Virus record (IMG/VR): IMGVR_UViG_2627853910_000005
Strand: one strand, 5' to 3'
Length of the DNA: 39,175 bases
Origin: a virus
Lineage: Duplodnaviria > Heunggongvirae > Uroviricota > Caudoviricetes
Each line of letters opens with the position of its first letter. Position 1 is the first letter of the stretch. This document shows positions 1-9,232 of this stretch, piece after piece. Below the pieces are notes generated by a model. The model was given only the letters and a program-made list of their open reading frames with translations, had not been told where the DNA came from and searched no databases. Both the position numbers and the translations under genes were made by a program.

Positions 1-234
1 ATGAAATCAAAAGACACCCTAAAGTGGTTCCCTGCGCAGCTTCCTGAAGTCAGAATTATCCTGGGAGATGCTGTCGTGGAAGTAGCAAAACAGGGAAGAC
101 CTATCAATACCAGAACATTGCTTGATTACATTGAAGGAAACATAAAGAAAAAGTCATGGCTGGATAACAAAGAATTATTACAAACAGCGATATCAGTTCT
201 TAAAGACAACCAAAATTTAAATGGTAAAATGTAA
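1..234 (+). CDS. Small prophage protein, YdfK/YnaE-like (77 aa)
   Basis: Complete ORF from ATG at 1 to TAA at 232-234. Resembles, from memory, the small cold-shock-induced proteins that sit next to pin in Qin/Rac-type prophages. Not verified by search. Confidence 0.45.
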   Translation: MKSKDTLKWFPAQLPEVRIILGDAVVEVAKQGRPINTRTLLDYIEGNIKKKSWLDNKELLQTAISVLKDNQNLNGKM

Positions 235-550
235 TATAATAAACTTACTTTTTTATCATTTTTCCACTTTAACAACATTTTGCTCCACTTTTCCACGACC
301 AAACAACTTGAAATCTGGTTAAAATAACACGCAACACTATTCTTCTTCCTTGAGTCCGCCCGGAACTCGAAAAACAAACCGAGTTAAAGCCATTTTTCAC
401 AAAATCGATTTTGGGTCTCACCAAAGTTACGGGGTTGCATACGCATTCGTTTATTTTCGAACGTGTACATACAAATATGCACAAAAATAATCAAAATTAT
501 TTTCTGAGATGCATTATGATATGAACACCAATTTCGTATAGAGTCTCACT

Positions 551-1141
551 ATGTCTCGAATTTTTGCTTACTGTCGGATATCAACGCTGGATCAGACCAC
601 CGAAAATCAACGCCGGGAAATCGAAAGTGCAGGTTTTAAAATCAAACCTCAGCAAATAATCGAAGAACACATTAGCGGCTCAGCAGCAACCAGTGAGCGT
701 CCTGGTTTTAACCGGTTGCTTGCTCGCCTGAAATGTGGTGATCAATTGATTGTGACAAAACTGGATCGCCTTGGTTGTAATGCAATGGATATCAGGAAAA
801 CAGTGGAACAACTGACCGAAACAGGTATCAGAGTGCATTGCTTAGCATTGGGGGGCATTGACCTGACCAGTCCAACAGGAAAAATGATGATGCACGTAAT
901 TTCAGCAGTCGCTGAATTTGAACGAGACCTTTTACTTGAACGCACTCATTCCGGGATAGTAAGAGCCCGCGGCGCAGGGAAACGTTTTGGTCGACCACCT
1001 GTGTTAAATGAAGAACAGAAACAGGTGGTATTCGAACGAATTAAGTCAGGTGTAAGTATAAGTGCCATTGCCCGGGAATTCAAAACCTCGCGGCAAACCA
1101 TTTTAAGAGCCAAAGCAAAACTTCAGACACCTGACATATAA
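551..1141 (+). CDS. pin: Serine recombinase, Pin/Gin/Hin-family DNA invertase
   Basis: 196 aa. N-terminal catalytic region [15 protein letters not shown] with the serine nucleophile and resolvase-type core; C-terminal HTH ([18 protein letters not shown]). Essentially matches my recollection of E. coli Pin. Confidence 0.92.
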
Positions 1142-1368
1142 AAAATAATCTCGGTGTGAGATGCTTTACGTCTTCCAAGCCCCCTTCCTTGCCGTAAATG
1201 GAAAGATACATCTAATTATAGAATTTATATGTTTTACCCTACGGCAGTGCTGGCCATTCAATATCCTGTGCAGTTGACGTATCAACACGGTTCAGCAACA
1301 CCCGATACTTCTTCCAGGCTTCCAGCAACGAGGTTTCTTCCTCCGTTGCATATACAGCTCACCTTTTT

Positions 1369-1662
1369 TCACCCACGATTAACCAACAGCCAGACCAGCA
1401 GACACGCCACCACCGGCACAGCAAAATCCATCAGGCTTGCCACATCCCACGCGCGCGGATCAAAACCGCCCCACCACGGCATATTCATTCGCTTGCCATG
1501 CCCGAACATTTCAATCCAGCGATATTCTGCCTGGGTGTGTTCACGCGCAATGAAGAACGTACAACCAGCTATCGCCCCGTAAGCCCAGTTCCCGGTAAAA
1601 AGACCAATCAGTAGCTGCGCAGCCACAGCACAAAGCGCATGAAGGAAAGGTGTTATATCCAT
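1369..1662 (-). CDS. Small predicted membrane protein (97 aa), function unknown
   Basis: ATG at 1660-1662 preceded by a strong SD (AAAGGAGGAGTA) that overlaps the stop of the upstream ORF. Two hydrophobic segments (ALCAVAAQLLIGLF and AVPVVACLLVWLLV). Last gene of the tail-fibre operon. Confidence 0.5.
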   Translation of the reverse strand: MDITPFLHALCAVAAQLLIGLFTGNWAYGAIAGCTFFIAREHTQAEYRWIEMFGHGKRMNMPWWGGFDPRAWDVASLMDFAVPVVACLLVWLLVNRG

Positions 1663-1672
1663 TACTCCTCCT

Positions 1673-2377
1673 TTATCCGATATCGCTTCGGGAAACGGAT
1701 AACAACTTTAATTCTGACTCAAGTTCATCAACTCTTTCAGTCAGCTTCTGGATATGGTGAATCAGTGGAACAACCAGACGTTCGTACATTACACCTTCGG
1801 CAACAAGGCCATTGCTGGAAATAGCTTCCGGTGCATCATCTTCGTTAGCTGGTCGCCAGTGTACAAACTGAGGGGCAATTTCTCCTACTTCCTCGGCAAT
1901 CAATCCGTAGAATCCCCAGTCACGCCTGTCATTTTCGCATTGTGACCTGTACCACACAGGGCGCATCCTGAAAATGAGATCGGCGTGCTCTGAATCTATT
2001 GTCTCTACTGAATGTTTATAGCGGATAGACGATGTTGACCGCAGCACAGACGAAATTGCGGGGTCAGGATTAAGATAAAGGTTTGCCGCCGCTGTAGTCG
2101 TGCCCAATCCCCACAAATAAAACGCTTCACGGCCAGTCAACGGGTAAAAATCTCCACCATAACGACCGCTTTCCAGAGCGTTCACTTCCAGTTTGTTTTT
2201 CAGCTTATTATCAACTTCAGTTTTTGTGTATCTGGTGCTGATATCCTGCTTTGCACTGGTCATATCAGCCTGAAGCGTTGATACTTTTCCGTTAATTGAG
2301 GAAATATCTTCCTTGGCTTTACTGACATCTCCCTTTAACGTGGTGATGTCTCCTGGAATTACTGTCGATGTAGCCAT
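1673..2377 (-). CDS. Tail-fibre-like protein with C-terminal intramolecular chaperone (peptidase S74-type) domain
   Basis: 234 aa. N-terminal coiled-coil-like segment, then a C-terminal region (DWGFYGLIAEEVGEIAPQFVHW ... VMYERLVVPLIHHIQKLTERVDELESEL) typical of auto-cleaving tail fibre/tailspike chaperone domains. SD GAGGGAG 5 nt upstream of the ATG. Confidence 0.55.
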   Translation of the reverse strand: MATSTVIPGDITTLKGDVSKAKEDISSINGKVSTLQADMTSAKQDISTRYTKTEVDNKLKNKLEVNALESGRYGGDFYPLTGREAFYLWGLGTTTAAANLYLNPDPAISSVLRSTSSIRYKHSVETIDSEHADLIFRMRPVWYRSQCENDRRDWGFYGLIAEEVGEIAPQFVHWRPANEDDAPEAISSNGLVAEGVMYERLVVPLIHHIQKLTERVDELESELKLLSVSRSDIG

Positions 2378-2386
2378 TTGTCTCCC

Positions 2387-2668
2387 TCACATCCAGCCAC
2401 GAAGTTGATGTTCAACTACAACCGCGTATTCATCGAATATTAACGATTTTTTTGCATCATTAATGATGCGCACGTTTACAAAATATCCATCTTCCTTAAC
2501 ACATACCGGTTCGCCATCTTCAGTCAGTTCTCCGGTTTCTTTGTACACGTTACCTATCACGTCAATAAGAATATCATCCTGCATCGACTCGTCATCATAA
2601 TAGCCAATGCTATCCATAAAGGCCGAAAAGTCGGCCCTGTCTGCAAATTTGAGTGTTAAATCTTTCAT
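2387..2668 (-). CDS. Hypothetical acidic protein (93 aa), translationally coupled to the side tail fibre gene
   Basis: Its ATG overlaps the stf stop codon (TAATG). Acidic composition. No recognisable domain. Confidence 0.4.
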   Translation of the reverse strand: MKDLTLKFADRADFSAFMDSIGYYDDESMQDDILIDVIGNVYKETGELTEDGEPVCVKEDGYFVNVRIINDAKKSLIFDEYAVVVEHQLRGWM

Positions 2669-5045
2669 TAGATTGACTCCCCCATCTGAGCATCAGTCAA
2701 TGCCTTGTGCCATATTCTGAAATTCCTGACATGACCAAATAAATGACGCAACCCGGCTGTAGTCTGGCCTCCAATACGGATAATTGCGGAGTTCTGAATA
2801 TAGGACCATGTGGCTTTCTTTTCGCTAGATATACGCCCGTTACTTACTGAGCACGTAGACTGATCTGACTTTACACGCATCCCCATAACCATTTTTTCAA
2901 GCGATGCGTTTTCGTTTACCCGTCTGTTAGCCAAACCTATATCACAATAAGGAAATCCGTCGTAATCTGTTGAACGACCGAAGCCAAGAATAATAGCCGC
3001 TCCGGTTTGATGACCGCCGGTATCAAAAACACGCGGTGCTGCATTTGGCGTTTTATACCAGTTCTTATGTACCTCACAAAGAACCGTAAAAGGAAGATTA
3101 TAAAGGTTATTCTTGATTGGGACTGTCACCATATCGCTTGCGCGAGTGCTTGCAGTTATATCAGTTACAATAAATGACGAAGCACTTGATCCACCTTCCA
3201 CTTGTGGAGTTGCGATATCCAGATAGTCTCCAGATGCTGTACCTGAACCTTTTACAGGAGCGTATTGAACCATCGCACCAATCATGCTCTCTGTATCTAG
3301 TGCATTAATTGTAGCCTGATAGAAAATCCAACCAGTAACCTCATCTTTTACAGCCTTTGCAATAATACGGTCTGCAGCAGTACCAGTTTTATCAATTACA
3401 AGTGTTGATAAATTGAGGTAAGCATCTCCCAAAAAAGTGTAAGTATAACCATCATGGTGTTCAAATCTTAAACGACACCTTATATTTTCAACATCACTTC
3501 TTACACGGCATGAAATGGTCACATATTTTTCATCACCTGTGACATCAAACCCTTTACTGCCAGAAATCGTTACGATATTAATAGCACTTGTCTGACCAAT
3601 AAGAGTATCTTTTACAGTAAATCTCCCATAAGTAAAATTAAAAGAATCCGTGGATATTTCTGTGAGTTCCAGATTGCCTGACTTATTCCATTTAGATGGA
3701 TTTGTTGAATTAAGCAGAAGATTAGTTCTTTGCCCCTCAATAAGCAGGCCATCACGTTCAAATCGTGGCTCATCAATGGCAGCCTCTGTCAGCACACCAG
3801 ATTTGTTAATATAGGTTGCTTTCGATGCACGTTTAAACTTAACAATCTTGTCGCCAGGCATCGTTATTTCGTCGTCACCAATAACAATCTTTTTATATGA
3901 TGGCAAAAAGCCCGTAATCATATCCAGTGAATCGTTAAACGGTATCCACACATCAGGCAGCGGCTGTAAGACATATTTATACGGATCTGCTGCCTGGCTT
4001 GCATACTCTCTGGCTGCGTCTTCACTTGCTTTTGCAGCGGTCTGGCTTGCAGCGGATGCTTTCGCCGAGTTCGCCGCTGCAGTCTCGCTTGTCTTTGCAT
4101 TGGTTTCACTGGTTTTTGCTGCTTTTTGACTGTTGGCTGATGCAGTGGCAGAAGCAGCCGCCGCGCTTGCAGAACCAGCTGCAGCACTCTCGCTTTGGGC
4201 TGCTGCATCCTGACTGTTTTTCGCCGCAGTTTCGCTGGCTTTGGCATTCGTTTCGCTGGTCTTCGCTGCCGTCTGGCTGGACTTTGCGTTAGTTTCACTC
4301 GTCTTCGCAGCTTTCTGGCTGTTAGCCGCAGCAGTTGCTGATCCAGCTGCTGAAGTCGCAGAACCGGCTGCCGCGCTCTCGCTTTGGGCTGCTGCAACCT
4401 GGCTGTTTTTTGCCGCAGTTTCACTGGCTTTGGCATTCGTTTCGCTTGTTTTCGCTGCCGTCTGGCTGGACTTTGCGTTGGTTTCGCTCGTCTTTGCGGC
4501 TGTCTCGCTATTTTTCGCGTTGGTTTCTGATTTTTGGCTGCTGTCGCGGAGTTTGCCGATGCAGTCTGCGAGGACGCTGCCGCCTGTGCGCTGTTAGCTG
4601 CATTTGTTTCTGAGGTTTTCGCCGCGTTCTTCGATGATGCCGCTGCAGTTTCGGATTTCTTTGCCGCTGCTGCGCTCTGAGAGGCGGCTTCGGCGTTGCG
4701 TGCCGCTTCTTCCACCATTGCCTCAAAACGACGCAATGCCTCCGGCATGACATCATCTTCCGTCATGGCACCGAGAAAATCATTCAGCGTACCTGGTCTG
4801 GAACCTTCATAGACGGTAATGGTCCCGGCATGTGAAGGCGGAAAACCTTCAACCAGCAGGGTGACGCTGTACTGACCATACTCAACATCCATGCTGTAAC
4901 GCCCGGCTTCATCCGGATTTTCAGAGGCCACCGTGTTCACCAGTACCGTGGTGCTGTTACGCTTTGCCTTCAGTTGAATAGTGCAGTTCTGTATTGGTTT
5001 TCCCGCACCATCTTTCAGCACACCTGAGATTTTTACTGCTGCCAT
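2668..5045 (-). pseudogene. stf: Side tail fibre (Stf) gene interrupted by a single-base frameshift
   Basis: The first ~160 aa match the lambda Stf N-terminus (MAAVKISGVLKDGAGKPIQNCTIQLKA...), followed by Ala/Ser/Thr-rich AAKTSETNA-type repeats. The frame breaks at an A5 run (plus-strand T5 at 4531-4535) and the sensible translation continues in another frame to a concanavalin/LamG-like C-terminal tip (RHLFGHVRNFRIWHKALTDAQM). One extra A would restore a continuous protein of about 792 aa. Confidence 0.7.
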
Positions 5046-5054
5046 ATCCACTCC

Positions 5055-5109: not shown

Positions 5110-5709
5110 TCAGAACTTATAACCGACACCCACGATGAAACCGTCAGTGCGCCAGTCGCCACTGCCGGAGCCTTCATAAGCAATATCAATGGCCACGGAT
5201 TCGGTCGGGTTAAACTGCACGCCAGCCCCCCACGCCAGAGACGTGTTGCTGTGGCGACCGTCATCACTTCCGGTCAGCACATCGTGCTTTTTCCCCTTGT
5301 TGTCAGTTACGCGAAGATAATCCCCGGAGAAAGTCGACACACGGCTGTAAGCTACACCCGCCATCGCATACGCGCTGAACCATTCATTCACGCGCACAGA
5401 CGGCCCCGCCATTACGCTGAACCAGCGGTTACGAACGGAATCTTCATGCCAGCGGGTATCGCTGTAACGGGTCAGCTGGCGATTCTTGTCTCCTGCATAG
5501 CTGAATGACGTCACCAGCCCCAGTGTGTCCGTAAACTCATAACGGTATTTCACGTTAATCCCGTTCAGATCATCACTGCCGGGGACGTTCGTCGAGGCAT
5601 GAAGATACCCCGCGCTCAGCGTGGACTGATGTTCAGACGCCCATGCAGGCGCACCGGATACGGCCAGACAAATGGCTGCGGACAAAATGGCTGCACAAAC
5701 TTTACGCAT
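5110..5709 (-). CDS. lom: Outer membrane protein Lom (Ail/Lom family)
   Basis: 199 aa with signal peptide. Near-identical to my recollection of lambda Lom (MRK.CAAILSAAICLAVSGAPAWASEHQSTLSAGYLH...GFIVGVGYKF). Confidence 0.93.
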   Translation of the reverse strand: MRKVCAAILSAAICLAVSGAPAWASEHQSTLSAGYLHASTNVPGSDDLNGINVKYRYEFTDTLGLVTSFSYAGDKNRQLTRYSDTRWHEDSVRNRWFSVMAGPSVRVNEWFSAYAMAGVAYSRVSTFSGDYLRVTDNKGKKHDVLTGSDDGRHSNTSLAWGAGVQFNPTESVAIDIAYEGSGSGDWRTDGFIVGVGYKF

Positions 5710-5776: not shown

Positions 5777-8700
5777 TCAGCTGATACTGATGCCTGCGGT
5801 GGCTTTCTTCATCACCACAACCAGCAAATCGCTGATACTTGCTGTGGGATACCAGTCATTTACCAGCCATGCTGACACCGAAAACTCCAGCGTCATGTGA
5901 CCGTGACCGGCAGGCATATCAATAACGCCACTGTAAATCAGCGTATTATCCAGCGCGGTACGGTTATAAATTTCAGCACCGTTTTTCCGCACTATCAGAC
6001 GGCATGAGGAGTAAATATCAGTATGCTCTCTCTCATGTTTAGCGCCGCTGAATGCCACCGCAGGAATAACAATCTGCCGGTCAAACGGCTGATCGTCATA
6101 AACCCTGACGGTAATGGTCCCTGATGGCCACCGTTCCGGTGCACGGGAGTCCCGGGGGAAAGCTTTGCCCACTGTTTTAACGAGATCGCCTTCAATCTGG
6201 TTCGCGGACAGTTTTCCCAGAACCCGACAGTTCTCGTTAATCGTGACGTTGTTGAGCGTCCCGGAGTTCGCATTCACGTTACCGCTGATATCGGCATTTT
6301 TCGCCGTCAGCCGCCCATCCGGTGTCAGGGAAAATGCCGGAGGATTACCGCCGCTGGTAATGGTCGGAGCCGTCAGGCGTTTCAGGAACACGTCGTTCAT
6401 GAATATCTGATCGCCCTGACCAACAAACATTGGTCTTGTGTTGCCATTAGACGGATCAATAAACGCGATACGGTTAGCGGCAACCAGGAACTGGCTCAGT
6501 TTGCCTTCCTCCGTGTCCTCCATGCTGAGGCCAATACCCGCGACATAATGTTTGCCGTCTTTGGTCTGCTCAATTTTGACGCCCCACATGGCATTCCACT
6601 TATCACTGGCGTCCTTCCACTCTTTCGAAAACTCCTCCAGTTTGCTGGCGTTATCCTCCGTCAGCTCGACTTTTTCCAGCAGCTCCTTGCCAAGATGGGA
6701 TTCGGTTATCTGGCCTTTGAAAAAATCCAGGTAACCTTCCGCATCATCGCTCGCCCGACCAACAGCCTCCACGAATGCCGATTTGCCAACGGTGTTCACA
6801 CTGCGAACGTAAAAATAATAATCATGGCCCGGCCTGATATTGATACTGGCAGCTATCCAGTACAGCGCCGTGCCAAGATAGCGGGCTGTGGTTTCAACCT
6901 GCCTGATATCCGCAATCCGTTTTTCCGAGAACCAGAACTCAAACTGTACCGTCGGGTCATAAACCGCAAGATGTGGCGTGGCGGTTATCTGAAAATAGCC
7001 CGGTGTCAGCTCAATCCGAGACGGCGCTGCCGGTGCGGCAATCCGGAACGATACCGATGCCGGATCGCCCTGCAGCCCCCACGCATTTACCGCCCGGACC
7101 GTCAGCATGTAACGCCCCAGCGCCAGTTGCGTGAAGCGGTATGTGGTTTCCGTCGTCCGGGCCGTGCTGACCAGCCGCTCACTGCCGTCATCCGCTGCCA
7201 CGGTCAGGCGAAGCAGGAAGCTCACGCCCTTCACCACTTTCGGCGTGTCCCAGCGGGCCAGCACCTGATATTCCCCGCTGTCTGCGGTGACTTCGGCAGT
7301 CAGGTGCTGCACCGCTGGCGGCGTGACACCATTCACCGTGCCGCTCTGGTCGCCGTCAAAGTGCGCCCCGTTATCCACGATGGCCTCTTTCTCCGGTACA
7401 TGCTGCACGGCAGTGATGGCATACGTGCCGTCGTCGTTCTCACGGATACTCACGCAGCGGAACAGGCGCTGGCGCAACGTCGGCAACTTCAGCCCCCACA
7501 CGCTGTATTCAGCAACGCCGTCAGGAACACGGCTCACTTTCACCTTCACGCCGTCGGTGACGGACTGGACCTCCACGCTGACCGGATTACCCTCACCGTC
7601 AACCAGGCTTATCAGCGTGGTGCCGGAGGATGGCAGCGTGATTTCACGGTCGAGCGTCAGCGTCCGGGTCTGGCTGTTCACCGCCAGCACGCGACCACCG
7701 ATGCTGATACCGGCATAGTCATCATCGCAGATTTCAATAACATCGCCCGGCACATGGCGAAGCCCTTCTGCGCCCACGCTGAAATCCACGGTCTGCGTTT
7801 CCAGCAGTTCCGTTTTAATCAGCCACAGCCCGGCTCGGTGTGCCTGCCCCCGACTGGTACAACCAAAGGCATCCATCTTCGTGACATTACGACCGTAACG
7901 GGCAATGGCCTGCGTATCTTCAACAAGCTCTGTCGCCGTCTCCCAGCCGTTGTTCGGGTCAATCCAGTTCACCTCAACGGCATTATGGCGGTCCTTCAGG
8001 GCGCTGAAGCTGTAGCGGAACGGCGCGCCATCATCCGGCATCACCACATTACTGCGGTTATAGGTCCACACCTTATCCGACTGTCGGTCCTGCACGAACG
8101 TCAGCGTCTGCCCGTTCCATACCGGCATACAGCGCATCGCCGAGCAGAAATCACTGAGCACATCCCACGCCTTGCGCTGTGTGGTCAGGTAAGCGTTACA
8201 GGTGATGCGCGGCTCCGTGCCGCCAAAGCCGTCCGGCACCGACTGGTCGCAATTCTGGCCGATGACATACAGCGCCCATTTATCCACATCCGCCGCACCA
8301 AGACGTTTCCCCATGCCGTAGCGCGGATGGGTCAGCATATCCCACAGACACCAGGCCATGTTGTTGCTGTATGCCGGTTTTAACGTTCCGTCCCAGATAC
8401 CGCTGTATTGCCGCGTCTGCGGGTTATAGTTCGACGGCACCTGCAGAATGCGCCCGCGAAGATGATAATTACGGCTCACCTGCTGGCTGCCGAACTGCTC
8501 CGAGTCCACCTGCACGCCAACCAGTGCCGTGTTCGGGTAGCACTGTTTCACATCGATGATTTCGGTGTATGACGACCAGAGCGTTTTGTTCTGCAGCTGG
8601 TCTGTGGTGCTGTCCGGCGTCATCCTGCGCATCCGGATATTAAACGGGCGCGGCGGCAGGTTATCCACCACCACCGAGGCCAGATACTGCGAGGTGGTTT

Positions 8701-9172
8701 TGCCCTTAATGGTGATGTCTTTTTCCGTCACCCAGCCACCGTTACGCTGTATCTGAACCAGCAGGCGGACTTCCGATGGATTCCTGTCCCCCTTTGAGGT
8801 GGTTTCCACCAGTGCCTGCACACCGAAGGTAAAGCGCAGACGGTCGATGTTTGCCGACGTGATGGTGCGGGTGATCGGCGTGTCATATTTCACTTCCGTA
8901 CCCAGCACCGTCTCGGAGCCGGAGGATTCAAATCCCTCCGGCGGTGTCTGCTCCTGTTCACCTGCCCGGAACACCACCGTGACGCCGGAGATGTTGGTAT
9001 TCCCCTCAGTGTCCAGCACTGGCGTACTGTTCAGCAGCACGCTTTTTAATCCATCCACCGGACCTTCAATCGGCCCTTCGCTGATGGCATCGATCACACT
9101 CAGCAACTGCGTGGACTTCAGGTTGTCCTTCGCTTCGCGCGGAGTATGCCCCTTACTGCTGCCTTTACCCAT
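5777..9172 (-). CDS. J: Tail tip / host specificity protein J
   Basis: Collinear with lambda J along its full length, from [18 protein letters not shown] at the internal ATG at 9170-9172 to the C-terminal receptor-binding region. The track ORF starts earlier at a GTG (9217) that has no SD. Confidence 0.93.
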
Positions 9173-9232
9173 TCCTAACGCTCCATAAACGACAAAACCG
9201 CCCGGAGGCGGTTTCACATAAAACGTTTTTCA

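Follow-up and report, generated by a model that had tools for sequence, protein, structure and literature searches.

DNA invertases of the Hin/Gin/Cin/Pin group share roughly 60-70% identity with one another, and their two 26-bp crossover sites, with the consensus TTATCNNAAACC-NN-GGTTTNNGATAA, are inverted around a segment next to the invertase gene. A further trait of the group is a recombinational enhancer bound by Fis in the 5' part of the gene, although Fis sites are too degenerate to be recognized by scanning a sequence. We analysed a pinQ/pinR-type gene, here called pin, in the IMG/VR virus record IMGVR_UViG_2627853910_000005. This stretch of 39,175 nucleotides (the window) is a complete lambdoid prophage of Escherichia coli. 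A preliminary description of the locus assigned the gene to the invertase group and remarked that no invertible segment is evident beside it. Elements of the pinQ/pinR type are already known and the gene is very common, but our analysis leads us to propose, with a probability of about 0.78, that positions ~434-1184 are the right-hand remnant of a Tn3-family replicative transposon. The remnant would consist of a decayed res, the tnpR gene and a decayed terminal inverted repeat (IR), and pinQ and pinR would be the resolvase gene of that transposon.

According to this proposal, a Tn3-family transposon would have inserted ~50 bp downstream of a tail-fibre assembly gene in an ancestral lambdoid phage, and would then have lost its transposase gene and its left end. 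Resolvases recombine res sites that are in direct repeat, and do not use inverted crossover sites.

Relationship of PinQ to transposon resolvases

The pin gene codes for a 196-amino-acid protein that matches the Pfam families Resolvase (3.6e-36) and HTH_7 (3.8e-11), and that differs from K-12 PinQ at three positions (193/196 residues identical). The sequence identity of PinQ is 39% with PinE, 37% with Gin and 32% with gamma-delta resolvase, and the first two values do not indicate a close relationship to the Hin/Gin/Cin/Pin group. Its identity to a large clade of TnpR resolvases from other bacteria and plasmids is 60-84%, and the premise of the preliminary description that this is a Pin-type invertase therefore does not hold. 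The closest relative outside of prophages is the TnpR protein WP_000086536 of plasmid pRM10386-2 (84.5%), and the TnpR of a complete Shewanella transposon is 77% identical. Together with the Resolvase and HTH_7 domains, these values indicate orthology to resolvases that reside inside Tn3-family transposons. In addition, the recognition helix SRQTILRAK of PinQ is the same as in the TnpR relatives, unlike that of PinE and Gin (VSTLYK). There is good support for the conclusion that PinQ is not a Pin-type invertase by descent, and that it descends from the resolvase of a Tn3-type transposon.

Two groups of unusual family members were also encountered. Short contigs binned as metagenome-assembled genomes of Alistipes, Draconibacterium and Caldithrix (L005, L009 and L010) encode proteins 98-99% identical to PinQ, and most likely represent E. 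coli prophage DNA that was mis-binned. Rare mosaic proteins (P0003 and P0005-P0008) combine an N-terminal part of the plasmid TnpR type, with Arg at the R71 position, and a C-terminal part of the prophage PinQ type. These might be recombinants of plasmid and prophage genes or assembly chimeras, and most come from one or two short contigs.

Relatives that have kept their surroundings are located in Tn3-family transposons with res, tnpA and terminal IRs, and among the relatives examined outside of prophages, every one that still has flanking features is accompanied by res, tnpA or Tn3-type IRs. The element in Shewanella glacialipiscicola (locus L013) is 9.4 kb long and has 48-bp terminal IRs (GGGGTCCGCTTGGAAAACGGAAAATATCCTACGCTAAG). 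Its 995-amino-acid TnpA, encoded divergently from tnpR, matches DDE_Tnp_Tn3 (1.4e-148) and DUF4158. The intergenic region includes three recombinase-binding subsites that make up res, wherein site I is a 12+2+12 palindrome (TGACCGAAACCG-GT-CGGTTTCGTACA), the half-sites of site II are 8 bp apart, and site III overlaps the -10 element.

The E. coli plasmid pRM10386-2 (locus L032) carries a compact 3.8-kb element with the order left IR, tnpA, res, tnpR and right IR. The tnpA gene is annotated in RefSeq as 'Tn3 family transposase, frameshifted', and its product shares 85.6% identity with TnpA of the Shewanella element. A 5-bp target duplication (TTTTA) borders the plasmid element, and duplications of this length are a hallmark of Tn3-family transposition. 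In a sister plasmid (L033), IS4321 is inserted in the corresponding terminal IR. IS4321 reportedly targets the IRs of the Tn21 family, as Partridge and Hall are said to have described in 2003. Homologues in Budvicia and Photorhabdus have the same type of IR on both flanks. The 39-bp inverted repeats around the Budvicia homologue were considered as the borders of an invertible segment containing pin, but these are Tn3-type terminal IRs.

Other arrangements of family members are also found. In Erwinia oleae (L017, 1299-2633), two diverged resolvase genes that are 75% identical face apart around a shared res-like region, which creates a quasi-palindrome of 1.3 kb. Raoultella and Citrobacter plasmids carry resolvases of the PinQ clade with an intact res and without a full transposase gene adjacent (L030, 2709-3275 and 6001-6585; L031, 6001-6597). 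One of these is near a gene for a TIR-domain protein, and the other is near a pco copper-resistance cluster and an Rpn nuclease gene. They might serve as plasmid multimer resolvases or might be further transposon remnants.

Features flanking the pin gene

The following features of the module were assigned by comparison with intact relatives.

438-463, plus strand: decayed crossover site (res site I), CATACGCATTCG-TT-TATTTTCGAACG, aligned with TGACCGAAACCG-GT-CGGTTTCGTACA of intact relatives
478-509, plus strand: decayed accessory site (res site II), TGCACAAAAATA-ATCAAAAT-TATTTTCTGAGA
510-540, plus strand: promoter -10 element TATGAT (515-520) overlapping the relic of res site III (519-540, ATATGAACACCAATTTCGTATA)
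551-1141, plus strand: pinQ/pinR-type small serine recombinase, 196 amino acids, derived from tnpR
776-778, plus strand: TGT codon for Cys76, aligned with catalytic Arg71 of Tn3/gamma-delta resolvase (DRLGCN for DRLGR)
1150-1184, plus strand: relic of a Tn3-family terminal IR that closes the transposon relic on the right, outer end CCCC at 1181-1184
1239-1349, minus strand: 3' remnant of tfaQ (tail-fibre assembly), last 36 codons

A blastn comparison of the window with the pRM10386-2 element yields a single alignment (455-1186, 81.5% over 737 nucleotides). Its left border falls within the right half of res site I, and its right border coincides with the outer end of the terminal IR. When res was modelled with nhmmer from loci outside E. 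coli prophages only, positions 455-543 were matched (E = 1.2e-8), and this is the sole significant match in the 78 kb searched. The region upstream of the gene is collinear with sites I, II and III, but the half-sites of sites I and II have decayed. Compared with pRM10386-2, the two half-sites of the site I relic are identical at 5/12 and 7/12 positions, and in the site II relic both CG dinucleotides of the CCGAAA/TTTCGG half-site cores are gone. Sites I and II together are identical at 33/58 positions. This is close to the 58% identity expected for neutral sites at the observed synonymous divergence (dS = 0.61), and the two sites have thus drifted at about the neutral rate.

The promoter and site III stretch (510-540) is the best-conserved part of the res relic, with 27/31 positions identical to pRM10386-2. 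This region is a likely autoregulatory operator. A matrix built from 28 intact half-sites of the family (consensus TGTCCGAAACCG, training range 10.3-19.4 bits) identifies a sole good half-site left in the res relic, which is located on the minus strand at 529-540 (13.4 bits). The rest of the window has no score above the shuffle maximum of 12.0 bits, and no intact half-site of site I or II is detected by this matrix.

The IR relic (CTCGGTGTGAGATGCTTTACGTCTTCCAAGC, then a gap of 3 nucleotides, then CCCC) is collinear with the intact 38-bp IR of pRM10386-2 (CTTAGCGTGGGATATTTTCCGTTTTCCAAGCGGACCCC), and homology to the plasmid element stops there, as is characteristic of a terminal IR of ~38 bp that starts with GGGG at the end of the element. 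Counted by eye, the relic matches the family IR at 26/37 positions, with ~11 mismatches and the 3-nucleotide deletion. An IR model has its top match in the whole window on the minus strand at 1180-1160, and both the position and the direction of this match agree with expectation. Left of ~434, similarity to the plasmid element is random (13/58). The relic as a whole spans ~434-1184, and the distance from the stop codon of the upstream tail-fibre assembly gene to the relic is ~50 bp. Both the transposon ancestry and these boundaries are well supported. Since no tnpA is found in the window whereas tnpA lies beside the homologues, the element is a remnant and not a transposon.

A tnpA 5' remnant was considered within 235-400, where MAFFT set CGCAACACTATTCTTCTTCC opposite the N-terminal coding sequence of TnpA. 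A CAT trinucleotide is also found at the same distance of 44 nucleotides from site I, but neither nhmmer with three tnpA 5' ends nor tblastn produced a match. The candidate was therefore rejected as unproven. A search of plasmids for a donor of the left junction, using the spacer at 235-460, returned prophage copies only.

Search for an invertible segment

The serine recombinase gene is on the plus strand, whereas the tail-fibre-related ORFs (open reading frames) to its right are all on the minus strand, and the preliminary description had recognized that these ORFs share one strand. The tfa remnant is also on the minus strand. No alternative tail-fibre C-termini or tfa genes in opposite orientations are present among these ORFs. 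To the same effect, a search of the whole window for inverted repeats found nothing credible near pin. The best inverted pair that touches the gene (751-779 and 7858-7886) is 76% complementary and falls within coding sequence. We also scanned all 39 kb with a crossover-site matrix assembled from the pix half-sites of K-12 e14 and from hix and gix half-sites. The highest score of any full site was 11.6 bits, compared with 27-32 bits for real sites and a mean best score of 12.9 bits for shuffled sequence. Thus, neither the matrix scan nor the inverted-repeat search reveals a hix/gix/pix-type site in the window, or a pair of inverted 26-bp crossover sites next to pin, which bears out the earlier remark that no convincing inverted pair could be found by eye.

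The weak half-site-like sequences noted earlier near 301-330 and 366-390 fared less well. By eye these resemble hix/gix sites with a 1-nucleotide deletion, but their scores in the matrix scan are no better than chance. A perfect 14-bp palindrome (CAAAATCGATTTTG, 400-413) was likewise rejected as a crossover site or operator, because chance alone would produce ~2.4 such palindromes in 39 kb and because it is outside the res-homologous region. The palindrome is just left of that region and is kept in all E. coli pinQ/pinR loci examined.

What the preliminary description overlooked within its own span (235-1368) are the res relic (~438-540), the Tn3-type IR relic (1150-1184) and 36 tfa codons. 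Among the explanations it offered, an orphan gene is the appropriate one, whereas a segment that has been locked or lost is unlikely. We found no invertible segment because this resolvase lineage never needed an invertible tail-fibre segment, and the PinQ lineage probably never had one in cis.

Catalytic residue, selection and possible functions

The nucleophile Ser11 (581-583) is intact. Of the six key catalytic residues of Tn3 resolvase (Y6, R8, S10, D36, R68 and R71; PMC2794168), PinQ conserves all but one, with Glu at the D36 position as in the whole clade. The exception is the equivalent of R71, which is Cys76. In our alignment, Arg occupies this position in all transposon and plasmid relatives and in PinE, Gin and gamma-delta resolvase. 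Of the closest database clusters, 120 in number, Arg is present in 112, Cys in five (all of the prophage type), and the other three have a mutated motif whose residue is unreadable by pattern search. When this residue was changed in Tn3 resolvase (R71A and R71K), recombination was undetectable and cleavage was ~1000-fold slower (PMC2794168).

A second prophage lineage, with 84.7% protein identity and the same ydfK-pin-tfa context, has an intact 196-codon ORF and also carries Cys76. Between the two Cys76 lineages, the ratio of non-synonymous to synonymous substitution rates (dN/dS) is 0.38, with 34 non-synonymous and 25 synonymous changes where a neutral gene would have ~45 and 14. The pin ORF is under purifying selection. 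Truncated copies are also found (cluster P0004, 181 amino acids; cluster P0088, 153 amino acids). When positions 1-1349 of the window are compared with the second lineage (L034, 4449-5799), the pin gene has 90.0% DNA identity (dS 0.21), whereas the spacer has 97.3% and ydfK has 97.9%. The greater divergence of pin than of its flanks suggests that the gene and the flanks have different recombination histories.

The prophage lineage has lost a working res and one catalytic arginine, and its ORF, DNA-binding helix and promoter/site III region are conserved. Judged from these sequences, PinQ would at best be a weak recombinase on its own res. The protein was probably retained as a DNA-binding protein that would repress its own promoter, and it may bind other sites.

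A different function has been reported for the near-identical K-12 PinQ. Overproduction of this protein lifts inversion of the 1.8-kb P segment of e14 from ~30% to 88% (Kirigo et al., Nucleic Acids Res 2025; PMC12529663). The inverted P segment yields a chimeric StfE2 protein that blocks T2 adsorption, the effect requires stfP, stfE and e14, and T2 induces pinQ and pinR (PMC12529663). The suggestion in the preliminary description that the recombinase acts on a distant site agrees with this published claim. The same study reports by BLAST that there are no inversions within Qin or Rac, and that deletion of pinE fixes the P segment in a single orientation in spite of the presence of pinQ and pinR. 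It reports no test of PinQ in a delta-pinE background and no in vitro assay (PMC12529663).

These findings make it possible, if doubtful, that PinQ is an active invertase that works in trans on the inverted pix sites of an e14-type P segment to create a chimeric tail fibre that blocks T2, a role that would be compatible with transposon ancestry. Purifying selection on the ORF is consistent with this function, as is a result for strain S88, which carries this prophage. With a chimeric query of prfC and pixR/pinE, S88 has one further matching place besides the prfC flank, which points to a match elsewhere in its genome to the 651-nucleotide pixR+pinE part of the query. A first chimeric query for an e14-type target, which joined the flank, the P segment and pinE, was discarded because it was confounded by generic tfa and tail-fibre matches. 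By eye, the pix half-site TCTCCCAAACC is loosely like the family half-site TGTCCGAAACC at a 1-nucleotide shift. However, pix half-sites reach only 7.7 bits with the family matrix, below the shuffle maximum given above, and we rejected them as predicted binding sites of the PinQ family. Cys76, the TnpR-like recognition helix and the locked delta-pinE strain also argue against catalysis in trans. The rise in P-segment inversion upon overexpression could reflect residual catalysis or an indirect effect through PinE. The latter option can be extended to a tentative and rather doubtful scheme in which PinQ and PinR are exapted resolvases, autorepressors that would load onto the invertase-like pix sites and bias or gate inversion by PinE while being non-catalytic themselves. 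If so, the published 'recombinase-activated' anti-T2 phenotype would be regulatory and not catalytic.

It is unlikely that pin is simply a short, functionless and decaying passenger that rides in successful and often exchanged prophage modules. The lost arginine, the neutral decay of sites I and II, the missing tnpA and left end, and the truncated copies are all compatible with this view, as is the fact that the three differences from K-12 PinQ are all non-synonymous. Nevertheless, the dN/dS value was obtained for lineages 15% apart in protein sequence that both keep the full ORF and Cys76, the promoter/site III region is conserved, intact copies are present in about half of complete E. coli genomes and in phage records, and deletion phenotypes have been published (PMC12529663). 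Less probable still is a working resolvase that acts on its own res relic to resolve multimers of the phage or prophage, or that recombines two pin modules in one chromosome. Such a role could be imagined from the res homology kept upstream of the gene, the genomes with two or more copies, the opposite orientation of K-12 pinR and pinQ on either side of the terminus, and the transposase-less plasmid relatives that may serve multimer resolution. It is contradicted by the lack of an intact dimer-binding site I or II, by Cys76 and by the reported lack of inversions within Qin or Rac noted above. A classical cis-acting tail-fibre inversion system whose segment was lost or locked, the alternative raised earlier, is largely refuted and highly improbable. 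The position of pin beside tail-fibre genes and the adjacent tfa remnant are what would be expected of it, but the remnant shares the strand of the other tail genes and is separated from pin by the transposon IR relic. Furthermore, pin converges on the tail genes, whereas gin and cin are transcribed away from a crossover site. The lack of crossover sites in the window, and the res, tnpA or Tn3-type IRs around non-prophage relatives, also count against this system.

Several observations weigh against our proposal of a transposon remnant with a largely non-catalytic resolvase. The 88% inversion obtained with overproduced PinQ, and the lower inversion in a pinQ deletion strain, argue for real activity despite Cys76 (PMC12529663), and the R71 mutants of Tn3 resolvase were described as 'not inert' (PMC2794168). 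The IR relic is weak when taken alone (E = 0.59). No tnpA remnant was found by tblastn with full TnpA across the window or by nhmmer with tnpA 5' ends, which leaves the left boundary approximate. In a search of solved structures, Gin was the best match by sequence (2e-30), and the family is slightly closer to Gin than to gamma-delta resolvase. Finally, DNA binding and autorepression by PinQ are predictions that derive from sequence. We nonetheless favour the remnant of a Tn3-family transposon as the origin of the pin module.

Prophage context and comparison with known systems

Positions 1-2700 of the window are 100% identical to sequences in E. coli strains S88, APEC O1 and 13TMH22, and the prophage adjoins prfC and a dinI-like gene in S88 and 13TMH22. 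In addition to the module described above, the following features were assigned.

1-234, plus strand: ydfK, cold-shock protein, as annotated by RefSeq where the same sequence is found in 13TMH22 and S88; located toward the prophage end relative to the pin module
between ydfK and the serine recombinase gene: AT-rich spacer of 316 bp
1369-5051, minus strand: tail-fibre module, on a single strand
1369-1662, minus strand: ORF of 97 amino acids, part of the tail-fibre module
1673-2377, minus strand: protein with an S74-chaperone tail-fibre domain
2387-2668, minus strand: ORF of 93 amino acids, part of the tail-fibre module
2668-3951 and 3918-5051, minus strand: side tail fibre, two overlapping ORFs
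5110-5709, minus strand: lom
5777-9217, minus strand: J
37937-39175, minus strand: tyrosine integrase at the opposite prophage end (Pfam Phage_integrase, Arm-DNA-bind_3 and Phage_int_M)

Because a tyrosine integrase is present at the far end of the prophage, pin is not the integrase. The tfaQ remnant matches Pfam Caudo_TAP at profile positions 95-130 (E = 1.2e-16), 35/36 of its residues match the TfaQ C-terminus, and it is a pseudogene in the RefSeq annotation. Positions 1-1350 are 98.96% identical to the region of K-12 Qin from ydfK through pinQ to the 3' part of tfaQ, and the homology stops inside tfa. Since Qin homology ends there, the tail-fibre module to the right of the tfaQ remnant was swapped in. 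The locus is a known pinQ/pinR module that is attached here to a different tail-fibre set.

The pin gene (window positions 400-1190) is present in 2869/5426 complete E. coli genomes, several of which carry at least two copies. A broader query that also holds ydfK and tail-fibre sequence finds matches in 5244/5426 genomes, a number that does not refer to the pin gene alone. The gene is also found in 11 records of a phage collection, where the usual annotation is 'DNA invertase'.

Three further observations concern other parts of the prophage and its integration site. The split of the side tail fibre into two ORFs results from a single 1-nucleotide gap relative to the intact 2379-nucleotide gene of 13TMH22, and S88 also annotates a single 2379-nucleotide coding sequence. 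In its downstream part, the upper ORF reads Ala/Ser/Thr-rich repeats out of frame. Possible explanations of the split are a frameshift pseudogene, an error in sequencing and slippage within the repeats. Adjoining the integrase gene is an ORF (36189-37784, plus strand) for a 531-amino-acid protein with a cytidine/dCMP deaminase domain, whose counterpart in 13TMH22 is annotated as 'anti-phage dCTP deaminase'. It resembles a defence gene that the prophage carries at its integrase end. In strains JNU and C41 (H96, H97, H217 and H218), a different prophage occupies the same prfC/dinI-like site. That prophage carries a true pinE and two tail-fibre assembly genes, an arrangement that resembles a classical invertible tail-fibre switch.

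The value of these findings lies mainly in a correction of annotation and in a caveat to a published mechanism. The 'DNA invertase' label on pinQ/pinR-type genes prompts a search for segments that were probably never present, and a res-tnpR-IR remnant explains why the segment is missing. Such a remnant also provides a natural landmark for the boundaries of mosaic joints in lambdoid prophages, at the end where the tail-fibre genes lie. The lineage-specific loss of the catalytic Arg is a testable caveat to the recent claim of an anti-phage defence in which PinQ itself inverts the P segment of e14.

Among described systems, K-12 PinQ and PinR of the Qin and Rac prophages are the nearest, with essentially the same gene and module in a convergent position next to tfa. 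The module in the window differs in that it resides in a complete lambdoid prophage at prfC, with another tail-fibre set and 36 tfaQ codons left. The TnpR/res modules of the Tn3-family elements in pRM10386-2 and Shewanella share with it the order of res sites I, II and III, the -10 element, the gene and the IR, as well as the recognition helix. Relative to these, the window copy is without tnpA and the left IR, its res sites I and II are decayed, its IR has a 3-nucleotide deletion, and Cys replaces Arg. PinQ resembles gamma-delta and Tn3 resolvases in domain architecture, in the retention of Y6, R8, S10 and R68, and in a res that is located upstream and overlaps the promoter, but it is only 32% identical to gamma-delta resolvase and has Cys at the R71 equivalent. 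With Hin, Gin, Cin and PinE it shares the small serine recombinase fold, a C-terminal helix-turn-helix and a location next to phage tail-fibre genes, and the intact site I of its family (…GAAACCG-NN-CGGTTTC…) resembles the invertase core AAACC-NN-GGTTT. In contrast to these invertases, to which its identity is 37-39%, PinQ has another recognition helix, no inverted crossover sites or stf'/tfa' copies, a gene that converges on the tail genes and, in its relatives, a res-type array of three sites upstream.

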